Below, piece by piece: positions 4,942 through 58,036 of a stretch of DNA of 62,562 bases; positions within the stretch are counted from its first letter, which is position 1, and each line of letters begins with the position of its first letter. Position numbers and translations under genes: made by a program. The notes below the pieces were generated by a model. That model worked only from the letters and a program-made list of their open reading frames with translations, did not search any database and was not told where the DNA came from. Location: positions 17,730 to 80,291 of the forward strand of contig CAJNOJ010000205.1 in NCBI GenBank assembly GCA_905250025.1, given 5' to 3'. The stretch comes from Adineta ricciae. Its lineage: Eukaryota.

Positions 4942-5336
4942 ATGGATTTTCTTCCTTGAAGATATCCACATCTAGTAAATAAAATCAAAGATCGTTGTTG
5001 AAATTAAAAAAAAGACGTACATTGAATTCGAATAATTATTCAACATTTATGTTCGATTAGAATTAATTGAATCAGACTATCAGAAATGCATAAATGAAGA
5101 AGTTTGAATCTTATGTTCTCTCAAGATGGTACATTAAATAATCAACTCTTATTTTGTTGGTATTCATAGTTAGAAGAGAACAAAAATAATCCACACTAAG
5201 AAAAGTCAAGCGCAGCATTTCCTGAAGAAAGCAACAACATATCCTGTTCACATACACACGTTTCTACTGAACGAGCTAGAAAAGCTTTGCAACATTCTGC
5301 GAAAAGAAGAAGCAATTTATTTTTTCTTGTTCCTTA

Positions 5337-8300
5337 TCAATTTCTGCAACGAAATGTAGAAAATATTCGCGATCGCTTGAGAACTGCTACGATCTCCTTT
5401 TTGTAGACTTCGGAAGGCCATACAAAAATAACGAATGTTAGCAAAGGTGGTATGTACGAAATAAAATAGCCGAACAAAAATAACCAGGGGTTTCTGGCTG
5501 ATTTCATACATCCAGAGGCGAACGAAATGACCAGACGTGGTACGGCTAGAATAACCAAAATCAGCGGACTAATTATAAGATGCTTTTGTTCACTAAAGCC
5601 TTTGTATAAATGTTCTTTATAAGTCATTGCTCTGTCTGTAGCTGAATGGATGCGAGAAACAGTAACGATGATAATCATGGCTGAAACTAAATTGATAGAG
5701 AACGGCATAATAAAATGAAAAATATTCATAAATGAATCGAATGTTTTCATGATAGAAGTGTAGCGAACAACGCACCAAGTCCGCAGTTCTTCTTTATCAT
5801 CAATCAGTTCACGGTGAATTGGGTCATGTACAAAGCTGACAAGACAACACAATACAGTGCCAATGATGACCCATGGTGCAATCCTTCGACTTTTGTCCTT
5901 ACTATAATGTATTCCTTTTTGCAAGATAGAAGCTCTTTCAATAGCAACGCAAGCATTCAACCAAGTGCTTATAGTAAGAAGAGATTGCAGAGTAAAATCC
6001 ATTACAATGCAGTCTAAGAGAATGAAGGTAGGATTTTTGATCCATGACATCTGGGAGAATAGTAGAAACCAAAATTTTGTCATAAAGACAACAGAGCAGA
6101 TAAGGGATACGATTGATGATACGAAAAGATAGAATCCAGATCCAGTCTGACGAAGAGTTTTTGACTTGAATGTCATAATCGACAAAAGCCCATTGACGAC
6201 ACCAACTAAACACATGAGTGTTGTTATTATAACACTAACTTTGACTGAAGATGGCTGACGTGCAAGGGATAAATGTGGTTGTATTTGGTATCCGAGGATA
6301 ATGTTAAGTGATAAGCCAAAACCTTTCGTCGTGAACTGGCATCTTCCTCCGTAAAAGCAGTCGGTGCAAATACACATGGTTGATTGAGGACACGTAGCAG
6401 GATTCTGAAGACATTGGCCACCATTTTCACACGTACTTCGTCCCTTACACACGTGGGTCTTATTGAAATCAAAGGGGAAACAGTTCGCAAAATTGTCATT
6501 GTTGCACAAGCATACAAATGCCTTCGGATCGTAGAAACAAGAGAAATGAGTATTTTGTCGGCAAACATTATGATAGAATTTTGCCCGGCGCAATATATGA
6601 AAGTCTAGTGTTCGTTTATCAAGTAAGTAATCGACAGCAGGACAATAGTGAAACGAGCTCATCTGGAGTGAGATTCGTCGTGCTAAAGATGAACTGTTCG
6701 TTTGTAGAAAGGCAAGATAATAATCATTATCGATTTGAACGAAAATCAGATTGAAGGGCAGTGCGATATACAATAAGGTGCTGTGTTCGTCGAAACGAAT
6801 CTTCCTAGGTATTGTAGTGATTGAAGGATGACTTTTCACACGTTGTGTAATGACATGAACTAATAGAGCTCGAGGAATATCTACACCGTCAAATGAAATA
6901 TCCACACGCGTATCTCTTATTTCACACATCGAACCAGAGTAGCCATTGATACAAATACATTTGAATGTTACCGCAAATATCTGTTGGTCTTCTATTATAC
7001 ACTGACCGCCGTTTTTGCACGGGTTATTTTGACATATAGAAGTAAGAAAGCAACGTGGCCCAAGCTTTGTATGAGGACACAAACAAATCGACCGATTGTT
7101 GACTTCACCAAGACACTTCGCATCCGACGAGCAATCACAATTATACAGTTGAATAGAACAATCAGTGCCTGACCAACCGGACTCACAGAGACAAAAGTCG
7201 TCTTTTCTATTTGAGTACATCATGCAACGACCATGACTACTGCATGCTAATTTACATGTTTCGATGTGACTTACAGGATGAGACGGTAGAATCAAGTGTG
7301 TAGCAATACGATTGACAGGCAGAAATAGAAACTTGACTGGTAACATCCAACTTGTATAATGAAGAAGATCAAGCTTACTGTAAGCATCAATTCGAACGGT
7401 ATAATTTTTCTCCAAATTCTTTGGTTGAGTCCGAAAAAGCAGGTACACGTTGTATTTTCGATCGCAACTGCTCGTGGAGATGTAGGTGAACTGTTCGTAA
7501 GAATGAATTATGCTACCACTATCGACAAGAGTCACAATGATAGTATAGATTCCTTGACAGTTCGGAGCGCATTCTTTGCTGAATTGCAGAGTTAGACTAA
7601 CTCGTTCGTTCTGAAATTGACAGCGATCTCCGTAATAGCTAGGCGGACAGAGGCATCTTTTAATTCTTTGTTCTCCTTGAAAGAAAAGAATACCGCGATT
7701 GCAGATCCATGCTCGATAGTAGTTTATATCTGCATCGAGTTTTTTGAACGAAGAATCGACACGGTCTGTCTGAGTATTCAAAACTTGAACAGGACTAGAG
7801 TCATCACTTACTGGTAAGTTTGTATACGATCCGTTTGATCCGAAACGACTCATATGACTTAAAATAAAGTACTCCTCGTTACGAGAGTATTTACTACCTA
7901 AGCTACCGTCTAATATAGGACTCTGTAAGATTAAATCTATGTCACTACCGTCTTTGCATATACTCTTATTCAAGTTCTGCTCTTCAAATGGACAAACGTG
8001 AATACCCAAACAACCTCCACTGATACATATTGTACTATTCCAACATCGATAACGCAATCCAGAGTGTTCTGGGTAGAGTTTACGACAGTAATTTCTTTCA
8101 TCGGTTGATCCTAAACAATCTACCTTTCCATCTCCGGCTTTTTCGACCGGTAAACATGTTATTTGAAGGTTGGTAGGCGATACACACAAGTGTTGATTAG
8201 GGTAACATGGAGACATTGAGTTACAGTTAACCTCATCCATGCCGTTCGGACAATCCCATGCGCCATTGCATTGTGTGTATTGATTGCTACATGGCCACTG

Positions 8301-10148
8301 TTCACAATTTGTCTCATCTGTTTCTTCTTGTTTTCCGTTGACTATTAACGATAGTTGAACATATCCATTACAAAGGTTTTGAAAAGAGAATGTTTTGTTG
8401 AAGTCAAATGTTTCATCTTCGCCTCGCAAACAATTCTCTTGCGTGTTGTGAATCAGAACAGGTGAAATACATTTGTCTTCAGATGAACATCGAAAACGGT
8501 GCTTGTCGTCAAGTTTACACGAATCTGAGAAGAATTCATCATCAGGTCCGAAACAATCCATGACTCCATCGACTAGTCTATGCTTCGAGATGCATTTCGT
8601 TGGCTTTGTACAATGAAACATCGATGAATCAAAACAATGCGATTCGTTGCCACTTTCGTCGACTGTCAAACATGTATGAAACATTTCAATTAAAAAACGA
8701 ATATTTGGTAGCTGATAGCTTGAAACATTTGAACATGGCATATGGTCGATCATAAAGTTTTTTTCAAAGACTGGACAGCGTTTTTCATTGAAACAGATAA
8801 AGTCAGGAAGTGGCATTTTGTCGGACTGGTGATATGTAACTAGTGTACTTGTCCAAAAACCGAACTGTCCGTATTCCTGAAGAAAAGGTATCATAGGGAA
8901 AAGTATATAGGTTGGGTGATTGCAAAAAGTATGAATCGGTACAGAACATGGTGGACGCTGATTTTCACATAGCCGAATAAAAGAAATAAACCAAGTGTCG
9001 TATTTCATAATATATTTGATCAGATTTAAACATTCTGAAGTCCAGTTCAATGAACGCAGTTTGTTAAACACAACTGACTGAAATAGTATTTCATCGCGAT
9101 GATTCTCGCATGTTGAATACGCAATCGTGTCAAAGTTCATACGAAAACCAGTCTGCATTTGAATATTTTGTCCGTCACCACACACGAGGCCGCGTAACCC
9201 AGAAAAGGGATCTGACTCTTCACATAGAAACGTTGGATCTTTATAACACTGAACAAATCCCAAAACTCGATTGAGTTTCAAGTCATCGAAGTTATTCTCA
9301 TCAGTCCCATCCAGACAATCTGGATTATATGGATGATCATTAAGAAATTCTTCAGGTACACAAATTCCATTATGACATCGATACTCGCCATGTTCACATT
9401 CATTTAGTTCCAGGTGCAAGCAGTGCTTCTCGTCGAGTCCGTCACCTAGACAATCGATTCGCCCATCACACACTTCACGCCAATCGAGACACATTGGCAG
9501 TGGTCCACGATTGCATTTTATGTGCATGTAACACGTTAAATTAGTGATATCAAGATTGGACGTATAAATCGATTCTGCCCATTTGGGATCTTTTTTAGTA
9601 AATGTTTCTGTCACAATGCTAGAAAATGATGCGTTGGAGTCAAATGTAAATTGACAAAACGTTCCGAACCATGATGATGTACAATTATAAAATCGATTCA
9701 ATACACCTGATGTTTCTAATCTATTTTGAAAGCTTACGTAGTTTTCGACAAGATCGATCGGGGCAGACCAAGAAAGTAGATCTTGTGCACTAACATTCAT
9801 TGCTTTCAAGTCATCCAATGTATAATTTGATAGTATATTATCTCGTGTAATAATTGATTCGTTTCCCTCTTCCTGGGCAAGTGGACGTAAACAGTACGAG
9901 ATAATTTGATAAGGATATTCAAATTTCTCGTGTCTCCATTGAAATTTGATATAGTTATCTACATTGAACTCCAAACAGTCATGATACAAAACATCTTTAC
10001 TTATTGAATCGGTGTAATACAAGTTTAGTTGAGCGTGAATTGGCGTCCACATCGTGATTAGCGTCGTCGTTGTCACAAGGATCATCATGATGGAAATAAT
10101 ATCCATTCTTACTATATTAACTGAATATATGAGTACGTATATAGCCAA
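5337..10148 (-). CDS. Giant single-exon receptor: about 6 LDL-receptor class A modules, at least 3 EGF-like modules and a C-terminal rhodopsin-like 7TM domain (1603 aa)
   Basis: Continuous 1603-aa ORF. LDLa signatures include CLDWREVCDGRIDCLGDGLDEKHC, CEHGEYRCHNGICVPEEF…DCLDGTDE, CTKPTKCISKHRLVDGVMDCFGPDDE, …TQCNGAWDCPNGMDEVNC and CLPVEKAGDGKVDCLGSTDERNYC. EGF-like signatures include CLCPPSYYGDRCQF, CLCESGWSGTDCS and CICINGYSGSMCE. The C-terminal roughly 330 aa has seven hydrophobic helices with an E/DRY-like AIERASIL after TM3 and NPWLFLFGY in TM7. It is paralogous to 58349..62562 (-). Confidence 0.85.
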   Translation of the reverse strand: MAIYVLIYSVNIVRMDIISIMMILVTTTTLITMWTPIHAQLNLYYTDSISKDVLYHDCLEFNVDNYIKFQWRHEKFEYPYQIISYCLRPLAQEEGNESIITRDNILSNYTLDDLKAMNVSAQDLLSWSAPIDLVENYVSFQNRLETSGVLNRFYNCTSSWFGTFCQFTFDSNASFSSIVTETFTKKDPKWAESIYTSNLDITNLTCYMHIKCNRGPLPMCLDWREVCDGRIDCLGDGLDEKHCLHLELNECEHGEYRCHNGICVPEEFLNDHPYNPDCLDGTDENNFDDLKLNRVLGFVQCYKDPTFLCEESDPFSGLRGLVCGDGQNIQMQTGFRMNFDTIAYSTCENHRDEILFQSVVFNKLRSLNWTSECLNLIKYIMKYDTWFISFIRLCENQRPPCSVPIHTFCNHPTYILFPMIPFLQEYGQFGFWTSTLVTYHQSDKMPLPDFICFNEKRCPVFEKNFMIDHMPCSNVSSYQLPNIRFLIEMFHTCLTVDESGNESHCFDSSMFHCTKPTKCISKHRLVDGVMDCFGPDDEFFSDSCKLDDKHRFRCSSEDKCISPVLIHNTQENCLRGEDETFDFNKTFSFQNLCNGYVQLSLIVNGKQEETDETNCEQWPCSNQYTQCNGAWDCPNGMDEVNCNSMSPCYPNQHLCVSPTNLQITCLPVEKAGDGKVDCLGSTDERNYCRKLYPEHSGLRYRCWNSTICISGGCLGIHVCPFEEQNLNKSICKDGSDIDLILQSPILDGSLGSKYSRNEEYFILSHMSRFGSNGSYTNLPVSDDSSPVQVLNTQTDRVDSSFKKLDADINYYRAWICNRGILFFQGEQRIKRCLCPPSYYGDRCQFQNERVSLTLQFSKECAPNCQGIYTIIVTLVDSGSIIHSYEQFTYISTSSCDRKYNVYLLFRTQPKNLEKNYTVRIDAYSKLDLLHYTSWMLPVKFLFLPVNRIATHLILPSHPVSHIETCKLACSSHGRCMMYSNRKDDFCLCESGWSGTDCSIQLYNCDCSSDAKCLGEVNNRSICLCPHTKLGPRCFLTSICQNNPCKNGGQCIIEDQQIFAVTFKCICINGYSGSMCEIRDTRVDISFDGVDIPRALLVHVITQRVKSHPSITTIPRKIRFDEHSTLLYIALPFNLIFVQIDNDYYLAFLQTNSSSLARRISLQMSSFHYCPAVDYLLDKRTLDFHILRRAKFYHNVCRQNTHFSCFYDPKAFVCLCNNDNFANCFPFDFNKTHVCKGRSTCENGGQCLQNPATCPQSTMCICTDCFYGGRCQFTTKGFGLSLNIILGYQIQPHLSLARQPSSVKVSVIITTLMCLVGVVNGLLSIMTFKSKTLRQTGSGFYLFVSSIVSLICSVVFMTKFWFLLFSQMSWIKNPTFILLDCIVMDFTLQSLLTISTWLNACVAIERASILQKGIHYSKDKSRRIAPWVIIGTVLCCLVSFVHDPIHRELIDDKEELRTWCVVRYTSIMKTFDSFMNIFHFIMPFSINLVSAMIIIVTVSRIHSATDRAMTYKEHLYKGFSEQKHLIISPLILVILAVPRLVISFASGCMKSARNPWLFLFGYFISYIPPLLTFVIFVWPSEVYKKEIVAVLKRSRIFSTFRCRN

Positions 10149-10311
10149 AACTTTATACGCGTGTTAATGGAATGTTAAAAAAAACTTCAGTGCCATCAAA
10201 GTCAAATGCTAAATATCATCATTTACTCTATCAATCATGCTGACACGTTTCGTAAGCATTGCCATCGTCATGTTTTTTCATAGTGACATAACGTGCCACC
10301 GAAACATAGGA

Positions 10312-10330
10312 TATATATATATATATAAAG
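10312..10330. repeat. (TA)n microsatellite
   Basis: atatatatatatatatata, read directly, in the intergenic region between the LDLa-7TM gene and the TRPM gene. Confidence 0.9.
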
Positions 10331-10853: not shown

Positions 10854-13800
10854 TTGTATAAACAAATCCTGAATTTTAACATGGCATTGTCTTCTACATG
10901 GACGGACCGAATAGCTAAACTTAGTGGAAATAAAACTCTGAAATCAAGAACATGTAAAGTGTTCGTGAAACATCCAGAAAGAGATATATGTCAATGTGGT
11001 CGTCTAAAGCCGAGCCATAGTTATGAAACACTTGATATGAAAACTCTAGCTGAACCAACCGATCAAACCAGAGAATGGAATGAATTTCCAGACACAGCCG
11101 CCGTTCCTATCAACGTCTATGGTCAATTATCGTCCAATGGACCGAAATTTGTTCGTTGTGACAATCGAACGAAGCCGGTAGATTTATATAATTTAATTCT
11201 CGACGACTGTAACAATCAAAAACCAAATCTGTTAATAAGTGCCTATGGCGGTGCAAAATTTTTCACCCTAAGTGAACGTATAGAGAAAGATTTTGTTACT
11301 GGTATTATTGATTTAGCAACAAGAGCAGGTAGGGAAGAGTATCATACACAAAAGTCGAGATACGAGCTTTGAGTTTCTCTTTCAAAGATGCATGGATTCT
11401 GACAGCAGGTGTAAATAATGGCGTTGCAAATCTGATTGGTGAAGGTATTTCGCAATATCGAGTACTGAAACAACATCCGAAATCGATTATATGTATTGGT
11501 CTGACGCAATGGGGTAGTCTGACTGAACGGACACGACTAGAATTGAAACAAACGACTCCAGTAAACATTGCGAATTGGTAGTATTTTCTATTAGCTATTT
11601 TATTTACAGAATTACCCTGAACAGCTGACATATATTAGACAAGCTGAGTCAAAGCTGGAAGTTGATAGTGAAGATCTGGAACTAAATCATACACATTACA
11701 TTATATTAGACAACGGTCAGTTGCGTGGTCATCTCAGTGACACGCCGCGCCAAAAATTCGTCAGTCAAGCGACGCAAGATGGCAGCTGTAAGTATTGTAA
11801 AATATATTCTATCATCTATACATGTCGCGTGTTTAGGTTATGGGATCACGATTATCGTGGAAGGAGGTGCTAACACTTTAGAAGTCATTCAAAATGATCT
11901 TGACGCGAAACGGCCTGTTGTTTTAATCCAAGTACGTGTCTAGATGATTTCGTATTGACTGAATTAACGCGAAATATTCGTCTAGAAAAGTGGTCGAATA
12001 TCGGATGTGCTGGCGAGTTTGATACAGTTGACGTCAAGTGCTGATCGGACTAAGTCTAGGTATGATTCTTTCTACATATCTATTCGAAGGTGTATCTGCT
12101 TTGTTTAGAGAACCGATTCAGGCAGAAGTCGAAGAACATCTTGATAAATATTTTACTGCGTTGAAAGGAGATATAGATCGAACGACTCGTATCAAACAGA
12201 TTCTTGAAATTATGAAAACCACGAATCGGTACTTATTACATGTCTATCAGCTCGATGGAGAAAAAAGTATGTCGGAGACTATGTTTCAAGCTATTTTCTC
12301 AGGTACAAAAATGAGTGACTCTGTACTTTCACATACTAATCATCTATTGAATCGCTTTAGCTTATAAAGACAATCCTGACGATGCTAAACGTGAACGCCT
12401 GCTTGATCTATCGATTCGATGGAATTTTCTAGATGGTGCTAAACAATTACTCGAAGTAAATAACACACGGAGAGAAAAAAGTGGCCAAACAAAGGTAGAA
12501 AATGTATAGTTCTCTCGGTCGTATTCCAGCTTTCTGTTATGTAGGATAAACCATTGTTAGGGAAACTGTTCAAACAAGCGTTAGAACAGAATCGACCATC
12601 TTTCGTCGACTATTTTCTTCGCTGTGGTTACGACCCAAGAGATCTACCAAGTGTCATGAGTCAAACGTCCTCGGAAGAGGAATCTGCGTTCATCAATGTA
12701 GATACAGCAAACAAATGTCAAAAATTTGTTCTGAGTTTATACAATCATATAAAAAAACATGCGTACGAAGTAAGCACTGTCCGAGATACTTGAATAATGT
12801 AGTGAACGAATGGTTTGCTGGCTTTAGCATCATAATAAAGAGTCGATTAAGTTATTTTATGGTCCGAGAAACGAGTTGAACGATGTTGAGTCATTAAATC
12901 GAAGACTTAGGCGATGGTTGGGTTCCTATGTCGATGCGGTGTACGTTACTAAGCCAAAAACATTACTACCGATTCCAATGACTCGACAATTATTTATTAA
13001 ATATTTCAATAATCAAGTTGCAGCTGAGAACGGAGATGCAATTGTGCAGTTTCATGATGGAACTTCGAAAATCAGACATAGTATTGACCATATTGCGACA
13101 GTCGGCATCACTCCCGACAACGTTGTAGATAGCAAAACGGATTTGAATTATTCTCAACAAGAGATGCTCAGAGATTTGTTCCTTTGGTCTGTATTTATGG
13201 ATCTTTCATTAATGTCGAAAACAATTCTCATTCATATGCAAGAACGAATTTGTGCTTCATTAATTGCTGCGAAAGTTTTCAAAGCGTACGCCGATGAAAC
13301 ACCAATTACTGATTTGAGAGATCGATTGAATCGACAAGTGGTCGAATTCGAAAATTACTCAGCAAAGTGTGTCGATACATGCTACGAAGTTAGCGAACCA
13401 CTCGCTTGCCAGTTGTTGATGAGAGCCGTTCCAAGCTTTGGCAATGTTACATGCATGCAAGTGAGTACATTCTATTCGACAAACGATTGGACAACGGTAG
13501 GGTAAACATAGGTTGCAATATCCGGTGAAAACGCGAAATTTTTGGAAACAGCATGTTTCGATCATGTTCTCAATCAAATTTGGTATTATAAATTGGCTCT
13601 TTCAACCAAATCTCTCGTATCGAAGGTTCGATTGTTCGGCAGTATACTTACACTTGGTTTGCCTGCACCGTATCTTCTCGAATATCGATCGAAGGAAGAT
13701 TGTTATTCAAGTGTAAGTGACGGAGGATCATTAGGTAATCTGTACTTTCTACTGTCTGCTATAGGAAATATTAACGGAAGAGGAGAAAAATGCAAAGTAA

Positions 13801-15551: not shown

Positions 15552-17594
15552 TTATTTAGGGAGAAGGTTTTGTAAATACCATTGATATCCATCCTCATAA
15601 TTTTGGTTATAAAAATGTAATAAACAATCAAGAAAATCATCGACGAACATACTATTAGACGATTGATTGCAACTGACCACAGGTAATCTACCTAAGTATG
15701 TGCAAGACCAATTGCTTGTGTATCGAAAGAACGAACACATCAGAGGTATACAACCGGACCCTGACCAACTACATGGCACGCGACCAACAATATGGTTGAG
15801 TTGCAACATATTCTTAGTTTGTTTCACTTGTTTGACTGTGATCGGAATCACTTTTCTAGCGATAGTTTTGATGTAGTTCGATATTGCAGTGCTGTGTGTA
15901 TTGAAATTTTCTTTGACGAGAAACTGATAAACAGCATTGCCTAATGCGTATTGTTCGATGCAGAAAGCTGAACCGGGAAACGATGGATTCGGATCTTGAT
16001 AAACTGAGAAAGGCTGCGGTTCAATCCATTTAATCCATGCTTGTTTCCACAGGGAGAAGAACGAAGAGATGACAGTTGATTTGAATCCCATAAAACAAGC
16101 TTGTGGTATCATTGCTAACGGATGCTGTTCACACCATTTCTTCATGAAATTGGTATCGTACATAACATGGTCAAGAATAAAGTAGAACATTTGTGAAGAT
16201 GAACGAAAATCATGTAAACTGGATGTCATATTATTGTAAATGACCGTATCGGAATCCATCCAGTAGATTTCTTCGAATCCATCATAAGAAAATTTGATAA
16301 TATCAAGTTTATACTGTGTTAAATTCCAGTCTTTTAGAATTGGTGAACTTGAAATTGATTTACATAAAATTCGGTAATGGTATTGTCGACCAATGTTATT
16401 CAAAACTAAGGATTTCGTATCTTCATTCATCACTAACAGTCCAACCATAACATTTGGTGTCGATGCTAAGAAAGAATTTATTGAATTGATTGTCATTGTT
16501 GTATATCGTTCAGTACCATCGGCAAAAAAGCAGACAATCGTTGATGGGACTTTATAAAGTTTCGAACAATTTTCAAAAGCAAATGTGTATAAGCCAGAAA
16601 TCATATATTTCGATAATTCATCATTAAGATTTCCTTTCGGATTTTGCGTCAGGGATTTAACTAGCCAACGTTGTAAAGCCGCATGCAACATTGCTTGATT
16701 TGATATAACAAGACCAGTATGATCGAGAATATCTGTTAGAACATCGAGAGGAAGTTTTAAAAAGTCTGCCTGATGGCAAACATAGAGAAAATATTTCGCC
16801 GCAGCCTCAATGCATTGCTTGCGTATGGTCGCCCAGTTATGGGAGAGATACTTCTCTAAGAATAATAAACGTAAGCAATTATTTGCATCGATATCATTTG
16901 CAAGAGAATTCAGCAAAACTTTGTATAAGGATAGAATTTGATACATGTCAGCAATTTCTAATAGCGATTCTAATTGGTCAAAGGTGAGTTTTGCGACGTC
17001 CATCACGCCAGTGTAAAGATACTTTAAGATATCTGGGAATACTTGAACATCGTTGACTTGTAATGATATAGTTTTGCTGGTAGATTCCGTCATACCACTC
17101 TGAAACATGGCTGCGAAATAATCGGAACCAGCTGCTAGAATCGCTCGATGTGCTTTGTAACGATTCACATCATTGACAATCAATTCCACATCGAACATCA
17201 GATGATCAGTGTAGAGAATCATACCAACGTCATGGTAACGGGTTCGTCCATTTTGTGTAATTGTCTCTTGTGCATCGTATCGGTCGAGAATCAGTTGCAT
17301 GAAATCTTCTCTATCAAGAACATTATTATCTTTATTTTTTCTTTCATTTGGATTCAAACACCAATGTTTGTTATTGATTTTATATTTATATTCGTAGGAA
17401 TCGGGTACGAGTTGTATGACTTCACTGAAAACAGATTCTTCTGCGTTTCTTTGATAAGCATATGTCAGTATTGCAATAGGTTCTGTCCAACTCGTCTTTG
17501 AAAATGAACCGTACAGTTCGATACGATCGGATCTCGATTTTGCACAAAATTGAAATGTAACAGGATACTTTCGTTGTCTCCAACACTGAGCCAT
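15552..17594 (-). CDS. Single-ORF multidomain protein: CBM48/AMPK-beta-like glycogen-binding module + BTB/POZ + BACK + C-terminal GT-A-fold glycosyltransferase-like domain (680 aa)
   Basis: The N-terminus VTFQFCAKSRSDRIELYGSFSKTSWTEPIAIL…EYKYKINNKHWCLNP fits CBM48/AMPK1_CBM. The BTB is YHDVGMILYTDHLMFDVELIVNDVNRYKAHRAILAAGSDYFAAMFQSG…ISLQVNDVQVFPDILKYLYTG, followed by a BACK-like helical region. The C-terminus has a GT-A-like layout with a DxD-like YWMDSDTVIYNNM. The stop lies 9 bp from the TRPM stop on the other strand. Confidence 0.8.
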   Translation of the reverse strand: MAQCWRQRKYPVTFQFCAKSRSDRIELYGSFSKTSWTEPIAILTYAYQRNAEESVFSEVIQLVPDSYEYKYKINNKHWCLNPNERKNKDNNVLDREDFMQLILDRYDAQETITQNGRTRYHDVGMILYTDHLMFDVELIVNDVNRYKAHRAILAAGSDYFAAMFQSGMTESTSKTISLQVNDVQVFPDILKYLYTGVMDVAKLTFDQLESLLEIADMYQILSLYKVLLNSLANDIDANNCLRLLFLEKYLSHNWATIRKQCIEAAAKYFLYVCHQADFLKLPLDVLTDILDHTGLVISNQAMLHAALQRWLVKSLTQNPKGNLNDELSKYMISGLYTFAFENCSKLYKVPSTIVCFFADGTERYTTMTINSINSFLASTPNVMVGLLVMNEDTKSLVLNNIGRQYHYRILCKSISSSPILKDWNLTQYKLDIIKFSYDGFEEIYWMDSDTVIYNNMTSSLHDFRSSSQMFYFILDHVMYDTNFMKKWCEQHPLAMIPQACFMGFKSTVISSFFSLWKQAWIKWIEPQPFSVYQDPNPSFPGSAFCIEQYALGNAVYQFLVKENFNTHSTAISNYIKTIARKVIPITVKQVKQTKNMLQLNHIVGRVPCSWSGSGCIPLMCSFFRYTSNWSCTYLGRLPVVSCNQSSNSMFVDDFLDCLLHFYNQNYEDGYQWYLQNLLPK

Positions 17595-22357: not shown

Positions 22358-23644
22358 TCAAGAAGAACTAATCAAATCTTCGACTGTGCACCAATATTCA
22401 TCCCATCCAATGCCTTCTTGGACCCAACCCGTACTCTCAGCTGGGAACAATGCATCCATTACCATTTGTGCAATTTTCAAATAAGGCAGTGCATCTTGTG
22501 CAGTGTCGAATTTCTCTGCATACATCAATGCTCTGATTGTCTTCAGCACATGTTCATCTGGATGTGTTAAGCATTTCTCGATCAGAGCTAGCCATGGATT
22601 TATTGCATCTGAATACAGATGCTCGTTTGATACTTGATATTCATTGCATAAATAATCCACATTTAGCTTTGGTCGGCCACGTGCAACGTAGTATAAAAGG
22701 TCTGTTGCGAACTTTGCTTTCATCAATTTCAACTGATTTTGTTTGCTTTGAAGTGAATGAACGATAATATCCAAGAAGAGACCACTCGTAGTTGCATGCA
22801 TGAGAAAAAAATCCAGACGAGGCGGTTTGTTTGGTCGTATAGCAGCTACGTTTACTAGAATACTCGTTCGTCTAGCGTCGTTCAAATCTGGCTTCCACAT
22901 TCGTGCATATTCTTCAATTAACGGACCACCACCTCTTTGTAAAAGTATCGGCGTTTTCGGTCGAGCATCGGTGTAAACGATCATATCATCAAATCGATGA
23001 TCATTTCTGATCAGTTCAATAATTTCCAAAGCTGTTTTATCACCATCTCCACTGGAATTTAAATTTATATGATCAACGACATCTTTAACATTGATTCGAT
23101 CAACCGCTGCCATAGCTAGACCTTCAATGGCCATTCCTTTCGATTGAAACTCAAGAGCATATCCAAGATGAATGAATGGATGATAAGCGCCAGCCAAAAT
23201 AAGACCAAGATATCCTTTGTTAAATGTATAATCTTCGATTAGAGCTTCCATCTTTCCTTGATACTTTTCACTGATTAATTCATTTTTAAAGAATTCCAAA
23301 TAATCATGATAATACTTATCGTCACCTAAGCATTTTTCGGGATCGAAATTCTCTTTTTGATTAAGTGCGGCTAAAGGCTGTTGAATTTTTGTATGTTGTT
23401 CAAAGATGTGCTTCAACGTTTGAGAAGAAGCACCGAATCCTAAAGCAGCTAAAAGATGATGCGCAGTATGATTGTGATAACCACCTGGAATATAGAAAAA
23501 CAGATGATGAGCTTCATGATTCTTTTCGAGGAGATCAGAACATGTTCGAACTGCTTCAGATTGGATACCAGGTAATAAACAGACATCATTTTTCATGCGA
23601 AATTCATTGCATGACAAAGCAAACATGATGCAGTAAGTTAGCAC
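22358..23644 (-). CDS. Questin-oxidase-like / DUF4243 (AflY-type Baeyer-Villiger-like oxidoreductase) family protein, intronless (428 aa)
   Basis: N-terminal family signature HHLFFYIPGGYHNHTAHHLLAALGFGAS, and central YHPFIHLGYALEF, as in fungal/bacterial questin oxidase/AflY-like proteins. Length is typical for the family. It uses the host-like AT-rich codon style. Confidence 0.8.
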   Translation of the reverse strand: MLTYCIMFALSCNEFRMKNDVCLLPGIQSEAVRTCSDLLEKNHEAHHLFFYIPGGYHNHTAHHLLAALGFGASSQTLKHIFEQHTKIQQPLAALNQKENFDPEKCLGDDKYYHDYLEFFKNELISEKYQGKMEALIEDYTFNKGYLGLILAGAYHPFIHLGYALEFQSKGMAIEGLAMAAVDRINVKDVVDHINLNSSGDGDKTALEIIELIRNDHRFDDMIVYTDARPKTPILLQRGGGPLIEEYARMWKPDLNDARRTSILVNVAAIRPNKPPRLDFFLMHATTSGLFLDIIVHSLQSKQNQLKLMKAKFATDLLYYVARGRPKLNVDYLCNEYQVSNEHLYSDAINPWLALIEKCLTHPDEHVLKTIRALMYAEKFDTAQDALPYLKIAQMVMDALFPAESTGWVQEGIGWDEYWCTVEDLISSS

Positions 23645-26694: not shown

Positions 26695-29600
26695 ATGTCT
26701 TCGTCGTCCGCATCCACGTTGTATGGTAAAACCATTCTATTAGAACTTGGGTATGAAAAAGGCTTTAAAGCGAAACAAGAATTGATCAATTTCTTGCGAG
26801 AGCAGCACGCACGTGTTTCGTATATTCTTACAGCTAGTGTACGTATGTTTACTTTTGTATTCCAATTTGTAAAAATCTTTTTTTTTCATCAAGACTGATT
26901 ATGTTTTCACAACAAATAATGTCGACAATTCAAAGACGCGTCGTGCTAGACAACTCGGTATTCCACTAATCGATGTCGACTATATACAACAATATCGTTC
27001 CTCATCGTCTGGACGAATATCGACTGACATCAATAAATTTCTCATCAAGTCGTCCGAAGATCAAGAGAATTTTACGAGAACTGGTACTATAAACGTCTCA
27101 GGTAATGTCGGATTCCATGTATGACGACAAACATTCCTAAAATTGTTATAGAGTCTCGACCGAATATGTGTAAAATCAATAAATTCGATGCCAATAAAAT
27201 CAAATTATGGAATTCTACTGATGAAAATCTGCCTTGCTTCGACGAATTAACGCATGGTGCTATTGGAAAATGGGCGATCTTTAAAGTATTCTCACGTTGA
27301 CCTATTCATCACTCTTCTCTTGTGATATTGTAGGAAACCACTGATAATTCCCATGTTTTCTTCGTTCTTGAACTTCAAATAATTCCCGTACAATACTACA
27401 ATCCATCGACAAGTGATTATCGATTGCGATTTCGGTATGAAAAGCAAACTATTACAGAAGGAAAACAGCAAGACAAGAAAATTTCATTTCAATATGCCTT
27501 TGGAAATGATCCTAATGAACAGCAACAATTGTTTGCATTCTATTACAATCGAATATCCACAATGCCACGTATTACACGTATTCGCGACATGTTACCTAAT
27601 CAATTAGGCTCAAAATTATTATTACGAGTGAGTTCTTTGCATGTACGGAAGAAAAGCTTTGATTGAATTCGTCTTCAGTCTTTGTTCATACATCGTCTTG
27701 ATACACAAATACTTGATGAGAATGTATGTCAATTGATTGAATCGATTTGGTTGGAATCAGTTGGTGATGTGAATAAAATCTTGAGTGTCTCGCCTGAATT
27801 CATCACTCTCAAAACGGTATACACGTATAAAAATGACAGATTTATTCTCAAATCTACCGTGTTTAGATAGTTGAAGCTGAAGCTGCACTTCTTGAGTTGA
27901 AAACTACCAATGATTCGGCGGCAGCAACACGCTTTTATTCACTTTTACCACATCAACCATCGTGCCAGATTGACCTCGTCAAAAATCGGCGAGCATTGAT
28001 TGAAAAACTAGATTTATGTCAAGTATGACAAATAGATCTCTTTATCCTTTTTATTGATCATTTTAACTACGAACAGATGCTGAGAGACATGCTAACAGTG
28101 AATGAACTGACGAACTGGAATGTGAAAGCGCCAATTGAAGCTAAATACAGAGCGTTAAAGTGCTACATTGAAGTTCTGTCGAGCTCGACACCTGAATATA
28201 AGAATATTGCGAAGTTGATTCAATCATCATCCGATAGGTTAATCAATTTTCAACATTCGTTTTGAGAATATTGAATGTACAATGTTTTTATTCGTTACAG
28301 TAGTGAACAAGTTCTTATTCATAATATATTCAGCGTAGCAAAACAGAGTGATAGTTTGAATTTTCGTTCTACACTATCTCACCAACGGCAATTATTTCAT
28401 GGATCGAAATATTCGAATTTCCTCGGAATTCTCTCTCGGTAAAACAATTCTTTTCTCATCGAGATTTATCTATGTTGTCAAATTAGTGGTCTGGTTATGC
28501 CGAAAATGGTGGTGGAAGACTTCGGTGTGGTGCGTACTGATATTGGTTGTCTTGGTTATGGAATTTATTTCTCAGATTCAATTTCTACATCTCTCAAATA
28601 TACAACAGCAAGCACCGCACGACCCGGACGTCGATTGTTATGCATATGCCAAGTGGCATTAGGTGAATCGGCGAATTACTACTCATTTGCACCAAATCTT
28701 ACAAAGCCTCCCGATGGCTTCCAGAGTACACATGGAGTCAAACGAACAGAGGATAATCAGTCGATGTTTACTGTAAGTTTTAATTTAAGATGAATATTCT
28801 GTTCATAATTGGTCCTAGGATAACGAATACGCAATCTATCAACTTGATCAACAACTTTTACACTATGTCGTTGAAGTCTCTTGGGCACCAAAGGATGCTT
28901 TAAACATCCAATTGGAACGTTTACCAATTGTTCATCATCAGCAATGTGCACTTGATTGTGTTTCAGTTGATGTTCCAACAACGATCGATGATGAAATCAT
29001 CGAAATAGCGGAGCAAGATTATGGTTTGATATGTCCGGCATCAGGCAAAATCATTCCGCTTCGATCATTTCATCTCCGTGCTCAAGTTGTTGACACAACA
29101 GTTGAAGTAATTCGATTCATTTTTCGATTTGAATGTCTAATTTTATCTTGAACATACAAGGTTGTTCTGTATCAAGTCTATTACAACACGAGTTCGACGC
29201 CCATCGAAGCTAAGTACGTTTTTCCATTGGATGAAAATTCCACGGTATGTGGTTTCGAAGCACATATTAATGACAAAGTGATTAAAGGTGTTGTCAAAGA
29301 AAAAGAACAAGCGAAACAAGAATATCGCGAAGCTATTGCCAAAGGTCATGGTGCTTATCTAATGCATCAAGAAGAAGCTCAGGTTTTCAGTGTAGCAGTT
29401 GGTAATTTACCGGCAAATACCGAAGTGATCATTAAGATAACTTACGTTGCCGAGTTAGAAATTGAAAATGGTGATATTATGTTTCGTCTGCCGGCAAAAA
29501 TGACTTCTTGGCAATCAAAGCAAGCCATAGAAGCACGAGATCAATCGATTCTTCGATCGATCGGTATGATCGACGAGAAAGTGGAATTCACTTTCAGAGC

Positions 29601-31490
29601 ATCCATTCGAATGCCATATAATATCACAAAACTATTCTCGCCAACACATCGTCTTCGTCGAAAAATAACCAATTGTATTGCCATGGTAGAACTCGTTGAT
29701 AATATTCTACTTGATCGAGATTTCATCCTTTCAATCACACTCAATAGTCCGAATTTACCTCGAATATCGATTGAAACCTTGGAAGATTCCAGCTCTCAGG
29801 CATGCATGTTAACATTTTACCCGAAATTTGAAGCACCAGCTCATTCTCGTGAAGAAATCGAGATTATATTTATTGTTGATGTGTCCAATTCAATGGATGG
29901 TACTCATGTACACCAAGCGAAACAATTGGCTCATTTATTCCTCACTAATTTATCAATTAATGATGTGAAGACGTATTTTAACATTATTACTTTTGGATCT
30001 GGTATGATCTATTACGTAATTTATTGTTTGCTAATAGAATTCGATTTAGATAATGATGAATGCTTTCCTATGTCTGTACCAACAACGAAAGAAAATCTTG
30101 ACAAAGCTAAACATTTCGTTCTGGTTTGTTATTTTTCTTGAAATAAATATCCTTCTCTTCTGAATTCATTCTAGCATTCACTGATTCATCGTGGTAATAC
30201 AGATCTATTCTCTGTTCTTCATCGTTACTCACTATTGCCATCCAAATTTTCACGTCAATTTATTCTGCTATCTGATGGACACATTCATGACCTCCAATCG
30301 ATTCTAATTCTACTCAAACACCAATCAACATTCTGTCGTGATCGTTTGTTTACCTGTTCAGTTGGTAATGTTGCAAATAAGCATTGTCTGAAGCAGCTGG
30401 CTAACGAAGCAAGTGGCGGTGGTCTAACGATCATATTCGACTCGAATTACCGATCGAAATGGAAAGCCAAAGTATTGAATCTTCTCGAACATGTTCGACA
30501 GCCATGTGTGACTAGTGTATCGATCAATTGGGATGGTCATATCGATGAACAGGAAAGGTTTCATATGCAAGCACCAAAAACAATTCGTTCTCTATTCAAC
30601 GGAATGCGAATTACTGTTTATCGATTTGTACAGAATTGTCATAAGGCAACGTTGACGGCAATGGTCGACGGACAAGAATTTGTTACCACTGTATTTAGCA
30701 ATCCGATGACAATGACAAGAGGACGTATTCTACACTGTTTAACTGCACGAGCGATCATCGATGATTATGCTAATGGACTATTGGATGCTGATGAAAGTGA
30801 AAATGAATTAATCAAAGTTCAATATAAGCGAGATCTTATCGATCTGAGCATCAAACATTCAGTTGTTAGTGCGTACACAAGTTTTGTTGCTATCGAAGAA
30901 CGTGATACCAAATCGAACGTCGAAAATCATCAGCCAGGTAAGCGAAACGAGCTAGTACACATTGATATTGAAGTTTTCACTACTGGCTGCAGGAGTTCGT
31001 CTGCTTGATATCATGCTGGAAAGTGACACGGATCTACTTCCATACATGGGATGGGATGGTGATGTATCAAATGCGTCCTTAATGAAACAGAAACTTATCG
31101 ATGCATGTACTTTACTCGATAGTACACCGATTCAAAGGAAAAAAGAGGTGATTGTTGATATTGAAAAACTTTGTGAAAGTATTTCCTATCGAGCAAGTGG
31201 AGATGCAAAGTGTGAGATCATGATGAATATCATACGGACGTGTCGTCATTCGTTAAAGGAATATGCTAAAGCGGATGAAATCGAACAGAAAATGCGGCGA
31301 GGTAGATGATTTGCAAGAAAAAGCTATGCATTCCTTCGTTTATTTCGAAAAATATTCAGATATACTGATGGAGATGGTCGGTGCAACAGCAGAAGAACGA
31401 CAGGTATTAGAACAACAGTGCCAAGCGAATAACTTGATATTTACAGATGATGAAATGTATGTAAAATACTTACAAGTATATCAAAATTAG
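26695..31490 (+). CDS. Vault-PARP (PARP4)-like gene: BRCT-like N-terminus, PARP catalytic domain, VIT domain, vWA domain; multi-exon
   Basis: The N-terminal exon MSSSSASTLYGKTILLELGYEKGFKAKQELINFLREQHARVSYILTA is BRCT-like. The catalytic signature at about 28540-28790 is GYGIYFSDSISTSLKYT…RRLLCICQVALGES…KPPDGFQSTHGV. VIT lies in ORF 29227..30141 (…VIIKITYVAELEIENGDIMFRLP…). vWA has an intact MIDAS, IIFIVDVSNSMDGT…ITFGSG. Further exons follow at 30235..31008 and 30962..31490. BRCT+PARP+VIT+vWA is the PARP4 architecture. Exon junctions and the true 3' end were not resolved. Confidence 0.6.
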
Positions 31491-32539: not shown

Positions 32540-33500
32540 ATGAACATAGAAACACGTGTACCAGATCAACCTCTTTCTGGAAGGCATGGAGGTCCATCAC
32601 GCGTGATGAACGAACCCGCAAGTCTTCATACTAGAGCAGATGATAAAGCAGTATCCGAACGCTCGCAATTTGTGCTCATAAATCAAGATGAACAACGTCG
32701 AGAGACGCGAAGTCCAATCAAACATATGTCGACAGAGGAGCTAGTACGTAAATTAGAAAAAATATTTCCCCACAAAAAGTCTACGTATTCTCAGAAGCTA
32801 CAAAGTGAGCAAGTCGAATTGTCACGTTTGGTTTCAAACGCAAGATTGAAGAAAGAAAATCGTAAACAGGAGATGCGAGGTGAAAAGAATGTTGTCGAAG
32901 ATATCATAGACATCTCCGCTTTCTATCAAAATCCGATGCCTATGTGCGATTTACTACTTCTCGATGTATGTCCACTTGGACTGGGCATTGGAGATATTCA
33001 CGGTCAAATGCACACATTGATTCGTCGTAATACGACGATTCCAACACGAACTCAGTTTTGGCCAATATTTACCAATGCTTATGCTTATCAAGCAACAGCT
33101 ACCATTCGTATATTTGAAGGTGAACATAAGTTAACAAAATACAATGTACGTTGTAGTCCAATATCATCGACTCTTTCTGAATAATCCTATGTTGATTGTA
33201 GGAATTTTTGGGTGAGTTCGATCTTTCCGGTTTGACGAGTAATTTGACTTCTCGGACACTTCAAATATCTGTTCGTATGGATATTGATGCAAATGGTATA
33301 CTTCGCGTCGATGCTGAAGAAGAACTTTCTGGTGCCAAAGCTACATATACCGTCCACTCGAGTGAAAAAAGTTCGATATTTATTTATTTGTATTTGTAAT
33401 GACGCTCTTGATAATCGTGTAGGATTATCAAGTGATGACATTCAACGGCATCTCATATTCGTAGAAGGTCAAACGAATGCTGCAGCTAAATCTGGTTAGT
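32540..33500 (+). CDS. HSP70-family substrate-binding (SBD-beta) and lid region, with no nucleotide-binding domain upstream; may be a 3' part of the PARP4-like gene or an independent gene
   Basis: LLLDVCPLGLGIGDIHGQMHTLIRRNTTIPTRTQ…IRIFEGEHKLTKYN | EFLGEFDLSGLTSN…[32 protein letters not shown] | RLSSDDIQRHLIFVEGQTNAAAKS. This aligns block by block with the HSP70 SBD-beta and start of lid (LLLDVTPLSLGIET…LIKRNTTIPTK…[45 protein letters not shown]…GRLSKEEIERM). Two introns (33141..33196 gtacgt…ttgtag; about 33379..33429) keep the frame. The upstream about 130 aa are basic/acidic low-complexity with no actin-like ATPase motifs. Confidence 0.55.
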
Positions 33501-35449: not shown

Positions 35450-36463
35450 ATGTCAGTCGCTTCTGCTTCCAGTCTAACAACTATATTCAACGGCGTCAAT
35501 TGGTCGTTTAACTATGTTATACTACCGATTTGTTTCATATTGGGAAATTTCGGTAATTGTCTGAATTTGCTGATCTTTGCACGACCGTCATCACGATCAA
35601 ACTCATGTTTTCTTTATTTTCTATCTGCATCGGTTATCAACGTAATTATACTGAATTTCGGTCTTGTACTTCGTTTACTGCGTGGCTTGTGGAGTATTGA
35701 TCCTGCGCTAACCTTATTATGGTTTTGCCGTTTACGTACCTATTTGATAGGAGCAAGTTTTTTAATCTATCGATTATCGATCCTGTTCGCCTGTGTTGAT
35801 CGAATGTGTGCGAGTTCCCGCAGTGCATGGATACGAATGGAAAGTCGTCCGAAAGTTGCTCATCGTTTGATCATATTGATATGGATCTTTTGTGTCATCT
35901 ATTTATCACCATCTCTAATATATCAGACGATAGTCTATGGTCAATGTTTGGCACCACCGAACACGATTTATGCAACTTACTCAACTATATCCACTTTGAT
36001 TCAAGGATTGTTCATTCCTTCGAGTATGATTCTGTGTGGTGTCATTACTTTTCTTCATTTGAAGACGATGCAAAAACGAGTTGAACCACAACATCATCTC
36101 ACAGGACAAAATGAGCGTCACGTCCTCGGTCAATACCTTGCGATGTTAGTTGTCCAAGTTATTACCGATTTCTTATGTAATATATTGTACCCGGCTTATT
36201 TAATCTATAATCTTATCTATCCAGCACCAACTCCGACAACTTTATTCATTTTGAATCTGGCATTCACAACACCTTATTTAAACTTCGGCGCCGCATTTTA
36301 TTTGTATACATTATCAAGTCCAAAATTTCGTCGTAAATTAGTTCGTGTTTTGAAACAAATCAAATGGATTCGTGAAAATTCACCGGATGATCGAAGTCAT
36401 GGACACACCGCAACTGTAGCTTCATTGCGTCATCAACCAGTTATATCTGCTTTGTATGCATAG
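35450..36463 (+). CDS. Rhodopsin-like 7TM GPCR (337 aa, intronless)
   Basis: Seven hydrophobic helices. TM1 LPICFILGNFGNCLNLLIFAR. DRM-like CVDRMCASS after TM3. TM7 PYLNFGAAFYLYTLSSPKFRRK with a helix-8-like basic tail. Confidence 0.85.
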   Translation: MSVASASSLTTIFNGVNWSFNYVILPICFILGNFGNCLNLLIFARPSSRSNSCFLYFLSASVINVIILNFGLVLRLLRGLWSIDPALTLLWFCRLRTYLIGASFLIYRLSILFACVDRMCASSRSAWIRMESRPKVAHRLIILIWIFCVIYLSPSLIYQTIVYGQCLAPPNTIYATYSTISTLIQGLFIPSSMILCGVITFLHLKTMQKRVEPQHHLTGQNERHVLGQYLAMLVVQVITDFLCNILYPAYLIYNLIYPAPTPTTLFILNLAFTTPYLNFGAAFYLYTLSSPKFRRKLVRVLKQIKWIRENSPDDRSHGHTATVASLRHQPVISALYA

Positions 36464-38288: not shown

Positions 38289-39242
38289 TTAACGAGGATT
38301 CATAATAATTGTATGGACGTCATTTGTTGGGACGATTTGAGAATGACGTAAAACGTTACTACGACAGAGATTGATGAATTCAAGTCGGAATGGTTTGGAT
38401 ATTGAAATAAATAAATAGAATGGAACAACACCAGTTAGGTAGATAAGCATCAGAGTGATAAAACTAAAGAAGGCTTCTATTTCTAACCTCTCTATGGTTT
38501 TATTCGTCACATAGTATGTCAATGCACCATAGAGAAGGTTAGTTCCATATGGAACCGATGAGATGATATTAATGACAACTTCAGTAATGACCATATATGC
38601 AAGATGACGATCTAATTTTCTGGCAGAGACTTGACTTGCATTATGACGCTGATACAGATCACGAATCGTTAAAAGACTGAAGACTGCCATTAAGATAGGA
38701 GGTGTAAAAGTAAAAAAAATAATTTGATAAATTGCATACGATAACTTGTACATGCCGAACATTCCACAAGTGCCGGCGCTGTTAATATATATCAATATGG
38801 GCATATGCAGAGGAACTAATGTGCATATAACGCACATAATGCAAACAAGTATTACTGCTGCTTTAATCGAGCTGAATGAGCGAAGACGCACGTTTGCTCG
38901 TGTAGCAAAATATCGATCGATACAAGCAAGAACGACTGCATATCGAAGAAAAAGACTGAATGTATGGCTGCCGTATTGCCGTACTTTACAATAGAAGACG
39001 GATTGAGTTTGAAGATCCGTGTTATTAAGTGCATAAAGCAATGGAGGAAGCGTCCAAAGTAAAAACATGATTGAAAATATTGATAAGGAAAGGAGATAAA
39101 TTGAGCTGGGACTACGTCGATATGCTCGGCGTGTAAATATTAGACAGTTGCAAATACTGCCGACGATACCTAAGATAAGATATAAGCTAACACCATACCG
39201 AATGATTTCTCGTTGAATAGCTGGTAACCATGTTACTGCCAT
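38289..39242 (-). CDS. Rhodopsin-like 7TM GPCR, divergent from the neighbouring pair (317 aa)
   Basis: Seven TM helices. TM1 LYLILGIVGSICNCLIFTRR. DRY-like ACIDRYFATR. Proline-containing TM6/7. Intronless ORF. Confidence 0.85.
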   Translation of the reverse strand: MAVTWLPAIQREIIRYGVSLYLILGIVGSICNCLIFTRRAYRRSPSSIYLLSLSIFSIMFLLWTLPPLLYALNNTDLQTQSVFYCKVRQYGSHTFSLFLRYAVVLACIDRYFATRANVRLRSFSSIKAAVILVCIMCVICTLVPLHMPILIYINSAGTCGMFGMYKLSYAIYQIIFFTFTPPILMAVFSLLTIRDLYQRHNASQVSARKLDRHLAYMVITEVVINIISSVPYGTNLLYGALTYYVTNKTIERLEIEAFFSFITLMLIYLTGVVPFYLFISISKPFRLEFINLCRSNVLRHSQIVPTNDVHTIIMNPR

Positions 39243-58000: not shown

Positions 58001-58036
58001 TTCATCGTAGGATCGATTTAGACTCACAGAAGTCAT
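52030..58036 (-). CDS. Large DExH-box helicase, DDX60-like; at least 7 exons totalling about 1800 aa
   Basis: Co-linear minus-strand ORFs 56534..58036 (N-terminal region), 55920..56468, 54876..55781 (Walker A VAPTASGKTYASYY…YIAPTKALVNQV), 54321..54800 (DEIH: FDEIHCMSGE; SAT: GLSATV), 53458..54141, 52842..53429 (motif VI QASGRAGRRGFD) and 52030..52848. They are joined by gaps of about 50-180 bp. Confidence 0.55.

Follow-up and report, generated by a model that had tools for sequence, protein, structure and literature searches.

Few class A (rhodopsin-like) G-protein-coupled receptors (GPCRs) carry a large modular ectodomain; such receptors, of which the relaxin and glycoprotein-hormone receptors are the known cases, are instructive as to mechanism. 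In RXFP1, it is the large ectodomain that drives activation, not a free ligand that enters the pocket. RXFP1/RXFP2 and the invertebrate type C LGRs (e.g. Lymnaea GRL101) place a class A seven-transmembrane (7TM) domain behind one or more low-density lipoprotein receptor class A (LDLa) modules, and the LGRs possess a leucine-rich repeat (LRR) horseshoe and a hinge. Here we examined a locus of the bdelloid rotifer Adineta ricciae whose product shares the first of these features and lacks the others: its 7TM domain also stands behind LDLa modules, but instead of the LRR horseshoe and hinge we found 6-8 LDLa, 6-7 EGF-like modules and two beta-sandwich domains. The window, i.e. the whole stretch of DNA analysed, comprises 62,562 nucleotides of contig CAJNOJ010000205.1 (assembly GCA_905250025.1, positions 17,730 to 80,291 of the forward strand). 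It contains the gene in question (copy 1, 5337..10148) and one diverged paralogue (copy 2), both of them, with all their features given below, on the (-) strand.

Copy 1 is intact, consists of a single exon and encodes a cell-surface receptor of very large size. Its open reading frame (ORF) occupies 5337..10148 in the ORF list, with 1603 uninterrupted codons counted from a TTG, exactly as in an earlier description made from the letters alone (hereafter the sequence-only reading). The first ATG, at 10106, gives a protein of 1589 aa starting with MDIISIMMILV, and all residue numbers are counted from this ATG. The coding sequence (5337..10106) has no intron and ends with TGA at 5339..5337. The window is AT-rich (GC 0.34-0.40); given its base composition, a stop would be expected about every 15 codons, and a stop-free run of 1603 codons has a chance of about 1e-49. 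The flanks contain a possible TATA box (TATAAA, 10152..10157, about 46-51 nt 5' of the ATG) and a possible polyadenylation signal (AATAAA, 5316..5321, 16 nt past the TGA), both being consensus matches only. A short (TA)n run was observed at about 10311..10330 (-), about 200 nt 5' of the start codon. Other long genes in the window are likewise without introns, so the absence of introns is not special to copy 1.

A homologue search with copy 1 returned 235 matches. The best 120 of these all had E <= 1e-290, were 35-66% identical to copy 1 over the full length and were mostly 1450-1630 aa long. Among the matches listed, every one with a named organism came from Adineta (vaga, ricciae, steineri) or Rotaria, and three more divergent, named full-length members belong to another bdelloid, Didymodactylos carnosus. 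We also searched a profile of the 7TM alignment against 1.84 billion representatives of clusters at 50% identity, and the numbers of matches were 1804, 1062 and 534 at E thresholds of 1e-3, 1e-10 and 1e-30, respectively; among the best 150 cluster matches, the longest were proteins of about 1500 aa which terminate in the 7TM. The receptor family is thus very large and uncharacterised, with at least 534 clusters at 50% identity, and bdelloid-only among the named members listed. The taxon range was read from the best 120-150 matches listed, and the restriction to bdelloids applies to that scope. The database titles were 'unnamed protein product', 'Uncharacterized protein', 'EGF-like domain-containing protein' and 'G-protein coupled receptors family 1 profile domain-containing protein'. 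A full-text literature search found no description of this receptor family, and a 2025 study on the class A GPCRs of lophotrochozoans makes no mention of rotifers. The family, whose size and bdelloid origin the sequence-only reading had missed, is therefore visible in databases but unnamed, and in the literature searched no class A GPCR is reported to have its architecture.

More than 100 homologues have the 1450-1630-aa architecture, and many of them are single uninterrupted ORFs on metagenome contigs. For example, one homologue (P0002, 51% identical) is encoded by a single 4707-nt ORF on a 1.46-Mb contig (ctg355581; ENA ERZ26165376, L001), next to F-box, FAD_binding_3, ankyrin and DENN genes. 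From these ORFs it follows that the intron-free state is common in the family. Together with the unbroken ORF, the recurrence of the full-length architecture shows that copy 1 is intact and that ectodomain and 7TM part form one gene, as the sequence-only reading had assumed. A second member (P0254), recorded for a contig of equal length and source, is apparently located on the P0002 contig, which suggests a loose clustering of paralogues as in our window; no synteny between the window and that contig was seen by eye. Full-length homologues are also carried by Logan contigs of 5.3-5.5 kb. One such contig was considered as transcript evidence; it extends about 230 nt beyond an AATAAA without a poly(A) end and is uninformative on mRNA structure.

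The only other copy detected within the window by tblastn with the copy 1 protein lies at the far end, at 58349..62562, 48 kb from copy 1. Its first visible exon (62296..62562, from frame-0 translation and splice sites) is cut by the window end. It is followed by a GT-AG intron of 66 nt (62230..62295, phase 0, GTAAAT...TTAG, with two in-frame stops), an exon with the LDLa cluster (61220..62229, 32% identical in tblastn to residues 393-691 of copy 1), a GT-AG intron of 53 nt (61167..61219, phase 2, GTAAGT...ATAG) and a last exon (58349..61166, 39% identical in tblastn) which encodes EGF, beta-sandwich and 7TM parts (the latter at about 58349..59380, with a 7tm_1 match) and ends with a stop. Splicing of the 53-nt intron rebuilds an LDLa-like module across the junction. 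The spliced product, 1364 aa long and free of internal stops, shares 34.6% identity with residues 379-1577 of copy 1; about 275-300 N-terminal residues are missing because the gene extends beyond the window end. The second copy with two short introns was thus correctly recognised in the sequence-only reading, and its view of a diversifying family agrees both with these two diverged paralogues and with the number of clusters given above.

The order of parts in copy 1 is as follows: a putative signal sequence, an N-terminal region that is variable, two clusters with 6-8 LDLa-like modules in all, an EGF module, beta-sandwich domain 1, three EGF modules, beta domain 2, two EGF modules, a stalk and the 7TM domain. 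The ectodomain comprises about 1250 residues and is modular and disulfide-rich. It begins with MDIISIMMILVTTTTLITMWTPIHAQ (residues 1-26, 10029..10106), a hydropathy peak which would serve as signal peptide, judging from its hydropathy. The following residues 27-190 (9537..10028) consist of about 100 variable aa at the N-terminal end and a conserved block with a half-EGF end (NCTSSWFGTFCQF); they had no Pfam or PDB-profile match, and the hhalign match was limited to the EGF tail. As for the LDLa modules, of which about six had been claimed, six stretches were indeed matched by Pfam Ldl_recept_a when the first 760 aa were searched (E 7.4e-15). When the whole protein was compared with Pfam, weak matches to EGF_Teneurin, EGF and LDLa were obtained and nothing else. 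A small hidden Markov model (HMM) built from the seven human LDLR repeats placed modules at residues 195-229, 237-272, 491-530, 530-567, 595-628 and 634-674, and a vestigial one at about 688-723, with its match near 713-723. A profile of the family matched LRP2/LDLR/VLDLR in the PDB over profile positions 192-282 and 566-698 (LRP2 9.4e-28), Notch/Delta EGF repeats over 918-1043 (Notch EGF11-13 6.6e-15) and class A GPCRs over 1249-1548.

LDLa-like modules 1-2 (residues 195-272, 9291..9524) were detected by Pfam, the LDLa HMM and the family profile alike. Modules 3-7 (residues 491-674, 8085..8636), some of them shortened, were found by the same three approaches. In an alignment of 87 sequences, the pairs D225-E226 and D269-E270 of the first cluster are invariant, and those at 523/524, 597/598, 624/625 and 669/670 of the second are invariant or nearly so. 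Because these acidic pairs, which close the modules, are retained so strictly, they argue for functional, presumably calcium-binding LDLa modules. Between the two clusters lies a Cys-rich, poorly conserved region (residues 273-490, 8637..9290) of no known domain, with no match in Pfam or, by the family profile, in the PDB. The second cluster is followed by a degenerate eighth module and the most variable linker of the protein (residues 675-800, 7707..8084), where the LDLa match at 713-723 is weak, while the family consensus retains CxxxDDExxC.

The membrane-proximal half of the ectodomain starts with EGF-like module a, CLCPPSYYGDRCQF (residues 801-833, 7608..7706), recognised by invariant Cys and Gly and by the AlphaFold2 (AF2) model. 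It is followed by beta-sandwich domain 1 with seven strands in the AF2 model (residues 834-942, 7281..7607), tandem EGF-like modules b-d (residues 951-1062, 6921..7256), beta domain 2 with short helices and no known domain (residues 1063-1186, 6549..6920, strands and helices from AF2) and the Cys-rich/EGF-like modules e-f (residues 1187-1258, 6333..6548, conserved Cys pattern and AF2 model). The several EGF modules previously proposed are borne out by the Pfam EGF_Teneurin/EGF matches and by the above profile match of modules b-d to Notch2 EGF11-13, to which they were 25-30% identical in Foldseek. In contrast to the Notch/Delta arrays, the rotifer modules are broken up by beta-sandwich domains and stand in an entirely different context. 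The AF2 model of residues 796-1262, based on a 30-sequence alignment, reached a predicted local distance difference test (pLDDT) of 87.4 and a predicted template-modelling score (pTM) of 0.77 and contained two beta-sandwiches, which the sequence-only reading had not mentioned. No family was detectable for either of them. We considered whether the two are duplicates; the hhalign alignment was confined to 25 columns, made up of the first strand and the end of the EGF module before it, and thus gave no detectable homology. Pfam over copy 1 gave no LRR (E<=1), no GPS/GAIN, no 7tm_2 and no YWTD (Ldl_recept_b) match. The ectodomain ends in a conserved stalk, TKGFGLSLNIILGYQIQP... (residues 1260-1285, 6252..6329), with near-invariant L, S, D, I, L, Y and I and a short helix before transmembrane helix 1 (TM1), which corresponds to residues 20-27 of the 7TM model (pLDDT 87-95).

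The C-terminal part (residues 1286-1563, 5418..6251) has a class A fold. Hydropathy of copy 1 displayed one N-terminal hydrophobic stretch and, behind the Cys-rich ectodomain, exactly seven at the C-terminus, in agreement with a seven-helix protein whose N-terminus faces outward. The assignment rests on the family profile, copy 2 and the modelled fold: the 7TM of copy 2, 42% identical to that of copy 1, matched Pfam 7tm_1 with E 5.8e-12 (46.1 bits, gathering cutoff 30.5), as did 30 of 36 aligned family members (best 2.3e-17). A profile from these 36 sequences had 84 matches in the PDB, the best 60 of which were all class A GPCRs, led by the melatonin receptor MT1 (8.4e-11, from TM1 to helix 8) and then 5-HT2B, GPR68/GPR4, AT1R and ACKR3. 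The AF2 model (pLDDT 87.9, pTM 0.87) contained seven helices, helix 8 and a beta-hairpin in extracellular loop (ECL) 2, and its best 50 Foldseek matches were all class A (target-normalised TM-score 0.63-0.83). Helix 8 (PSEVYKKE...) and the cytoplasmic tail occupy residues 1564-1589 (5340..5417); AF2 predicted a helix at 319-341 of the model, and YKKEF lines up with FRKEY of MT1. Fold, TM3-ECL2 disulfide, ECL2 hairpin and helix 8 are common to the rotifer receptor and to peptide, chemokine and proton-sensing class A receptors (GPR4/GPR68, CCR7, SSTR2, AT1R and MT1), from which it differs by an identity of 10-17%, by the 1250-aa ectodomain and by the replaced motifs described below.

Could the arrangement be an artefact, such as a pseudogene, read-through across two adjacent genes, or a class B2 (adhesion) receptor taken for class A? 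Amphioxus adhesion GPCRs carry LDLa/EGF N-termini before the seven helices (PMC2246102). The EGF-TM7 adhesion GPCRs (ADGRE/CD97/EMR) also have a long EGF-modular ectodomain in front of seven helices, but both groups are class B2 receptors with GAIN/GPS autoproteolysis and a 7tm_2 domain, whereas copy 1 had no such matches and, among the best matches listed, agrees with class A structures alone, both in profile and in fold. The stop-free frame is continuous, the junction from the last EGF module through the stalk to TM1 is among the best conserved parts, and the architecture recurs in hundreds of proteins. Since the sole observation in favour of an artefact is that copy 1 itself fails 7tm_1, we find this explanation scarcely credible.

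Several class A hallmarks are retained. C3.25 and the ECL2 Cys, which form the TM3-ECL2 disulfide, are invariant in the 36-sequence and in the 87-sequence alignments. P5.50 and P6.50 are invariant, W4.50 is kept, and N1.50 is present in most members. The E/DRY motif is kept in part: the E-R3.50 pair after TM3 is present with R invariant, but the third residue is Ala (in copy 1, AIERAS) or variable, not Y; the ERA motif pointed out earlier is present. A further claim, that of an NPxxxxxxY-like motif in TM7, did not survive: RNPWLFLFGY sits at the outer boundary between ECL3 and TM7, is absent in copy 2 and does not align with NPxxY.

A number of observations weigh against a class A receptor that signals through G proteins. 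The 7TM of copy 1 had no match to 7tm_1 at E<=10, a result that the sequence-only reading had itself named as refuting its class A claim, and when searched alone against the PDB it yielded weak histamine H1 matches (E 0.085); the claim stands on the family profile, copy 2 and the fold. In addition, the consensus, as read by eye, has Ser at 2.50 and Ala at 5.58, CWxP in TM6 is reduced to Pro alone (W6.48 is not kept), the NPxxY position reads TFxxF (consensus 'TFvvF' over NAIIY of MT1) with Pro-Pro four residues upstream, and the cytoplasmic tail is short. As D2.50, Y5.58, CWxP and NPxxY are replaced, G-protein coupling is supported less strongly than had been implied before.

These losses, together with the missing 7tm_1 match of copy 1, could instead mean that we are dealing with a scavenger or endocytic receptor, in which the LDLa/EGF ectodomain takes cargo and a degenerate 7TM acts as an anchor or trafficking module that does not signal through G proteins. 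Clusters of LDLa modules with intact calcium-cage D-E pairs are typical of the endocytic LDLR/LRP receptors, which share EGF modules with the rotifer receptor as well. However, LDLR/LRP possess a YWTD propeller, a single transmembrane segment and an NPxY tail; copy 1 has seven helices and no propeller match in Pfam, and inspection by eye of its short tail and loops showed neither NPxY nor a comparable sorting motif. Moreover, no part of the protein is better conserved than TM6 and TM7 (frequency of the top residue 0.76 and 0.70 among 87 paralogues, against a range of 0.49-0.76 for the TM helices), and R3.50, P5.50 and P6.50 are invariant although the paralogues are only 35-55% identical; there would be no need for this in a passive anchor. 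We consider the scavenger explanation unlikely, though it is the strongest competitor.

The distribution of conservation bears on how the receptor might work. In the same 87 paralogues, the stalk (0.63), ECL2 (0.64) and ECL3 (0.64) are conserved like the TM helices, whereas residues 1-100 (0.32), 273-490 (0.36) and 675-800 (0.28) are the most divergent; intracellular loops (ICL) 1 and 3 have values of 0.43 and 0.49. Because variation is thus concentrated in distal segments and the stalk/ECL surface is maintained, activation driven by the ectodomain fits the data, and the confidently modelled short helix of the stalk is consistent with it. This pattern is the reverse of that in chemoreceptor families which bind ligands in the pocket. 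An expanded chemoreceptor family, comparable to odorant or nematode chemoreceptors, with small ligands in the 7TM pocket and an accessory ectodomain, would account for the very large lineage-specific expansion and for occasional weak Srx-type matches; nevertheless, a conserved ectodomain of 1250 aa would be costly if it were accessory only, and taken together with the conservation of stalk, ECL2 and ECL3 this makes the chemoreceptor explanation improbable.

The stalk also invites comparison with the LGRs, as its LDxILGY superficially resembles EDIMGY, the hinge motif of glycoprotein-hormone receptors. Along with the position of the LDLa modules ahead of a class A 7TM, this might indicate a derived type C LGR in which the LRR domain was swapped for EGF and beta-sandwich modules. 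A profile of stalk and TM1 searched against the PDB gave no LGR chain, only spurious matches of CCCH zinc fingers to CxYGxxCQF, and the hinge homology was therefore rejected. Neither an LRR match in Pfam nor an LGR or RXFP chain among the best 60 of the 84 PDB matches was found, so that the solved structures nearest to the rotifer 7TM are not LGRs. We regard such a derivation as very improbable. The absence of LRRs had been noted before as a difference from relaxin-type LGRs, and the combination of LDLa, EGF and 7TM, with no LRR or GAIN/GPS match, agrees with it. With no LRR, no similarity to the LGR hinge and no closest 7TM match to LGRs, the rotifer receptor is not a member of that group; its mode of action would nonetheless be most like that of the relaxin and glycoprotein-hormone receptors, the large ectodomain presumably driving activation as in RXFP1.

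Taken together, our preferred reading is that of a cell-surface receptor whose modular LDLa/EGF/beta-sandwich ectodomain drives a class A helix bundle, with heterotrimeric G protein as the probable output; we assign it a probability of roughly 0.6. According to this model, the distal ectodomain would bind macromolecular ligands, with LDLa modules that keep their calcium-cage Asp-Glu pairs, and specificity would be set by the segments that differ most among paralogues (residues 1-100, 273-490 and 675-800). The signal might then be relayed from the conserved membrane-proximal EGF and beta-sandwich modules through the stalk to the ECL2 hairpin and ECL3 and on to the helix bundle. The number of conserved Cys columns in the ectodomain is odd (85) and one invariant Cys in ECL3 has no partner inside the 7TM part, for which reason a disulfide between the ectodomain and ECL3 is suggested; it would staple the ectodomain onto the bundle, possibly in a manner similar to the ECL3-to-N-terminal disulfide of chemokine receptors. 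Conserved Cys of the family include residues 881, 1155, 1182 and 1533 (at about 7464..7466, 6642..6644, 6561..6563 and 5508..5510), and the lone conserved Cys 881 of beta-sandwich 1 is a candidate partner of the ECL3 Cys, residue 1533. Both the transmission through stalk and loops and this disulfide are predicted from conservation and the models. The last step, output to a heterotrimeric G protein, is probable because E-R3.50, P5.50, P6.50 and helix 8 are kept, but it is the least secure of the scheme because D2.50, Y5.58, CWxP and NPxxY are not.

Two stand-alone ORFs in the window match 7tm_1 as well: 35450..36463 (+), 337 aa, E 6.3e-6 (below cutoff), and 38289..39242 (-), 317 aa, 1.3e-14. 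Counting the two giants, four class-A-like receptor genes are thus present. The stand-alone ORFs were considered as ancestors of the fused 7TM domain and rejected, as hhalign (probability 57-58%, 15-16% identity) indicated no more than the similarity general to class A. Exons of a TRPM-type channel gene begin about 700 bp from the start of copy 1 in head-to-head orientation (10854..13505 (+); SLOG in TRPM 3.1e-7, TRPM2-like domain 3.3e-17). Pieces of a DDX60-like helicase at 54876..58036 (-) lie immediately downstream of copy 2 (PIN-like_DDX60 1e-16 at 56534..58036, DEAD 8.8e-12 at 54876..55781); they probably represent one multi-exon gene, which may include the ORFs at 52030..54800. A 428-aa ORF at 22358..23644 (-) has a full-length Questin_oxidase-like match (6.7e-72). 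This type is typical of fungi and bacteria, and horizontal acquisition is common in bdelloids; the gene is a candidate for such acquisition, judging from its domain match. An 847-aa intron-free ORF at 42763..45306 (-) has a weak match to a GH141 insertion domain (1.2e-4, below cutoff); it may encode a glycoside hydrolase of bacterial type or be some other gene of foreign origin. An 850-aa, apparently intron-free ORF at 39970..42522 (+) encodes an OSCA/TMEM63-type channel (RSN1_7TM 2e-85, RSN1_TM, PHM7_cyt, PHM7_ext). The remaining genes are BTB/BACK (15552..17594 (-)), VIT+VWA, inter-alpha-trypsin-inhibitor-like (29227..30141 (+)), an HSP70 fragment (32540..33184 (+)), an F-box protein (49276..50355 (-)) and an aldo/keto reductase (50521..51591 (-), 4.6e-49).

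Bdelloid rotifers are noted for being asexual, for tolerating desiccation and for being exposed to fungal pathogens. We can speculate that the family constitutes a repertoire of class A receptors that is specific to bdelloids, massively diversified and activated through the ectodomain, in which variable LDLa/Cys-rich modules would recognise macromolecular or particulate targets (food, microbial or fungal-pathogen surfaces, non-self) and the disulfide-stapled interface of stalk and ECLs would act as a tethered activator of 7TM signalling, independent of the NPxxY, CWxP and sodium-site switches. This extension is distinctly doubtful at present; if true, it would represent GPCR-based pattern recognition with non-canonical activation. 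Compared with the relaxin and glycoprotein-hormone receptors, a single animal lineage has here expanded a different solution, which unites many LDLa and EGF modules with two orphan beta-sandwiches and has neither LRR nor GAIN, into hundreds of paralogues. If the receptors do not signal, a GPCR fold would have been recruited as an anchor for scavenger-type ectodomains. In either case, a large block of "uncharacterized protein" entries gains a defined architecture. If the receptors signal, they would show how an ectodomain can switch a 7TM bundle in which NPxxY, CWxP and D2.50 have been replaced, and bdelloid rotifers would possess a large unexplored sensory or immune-like repertoire.

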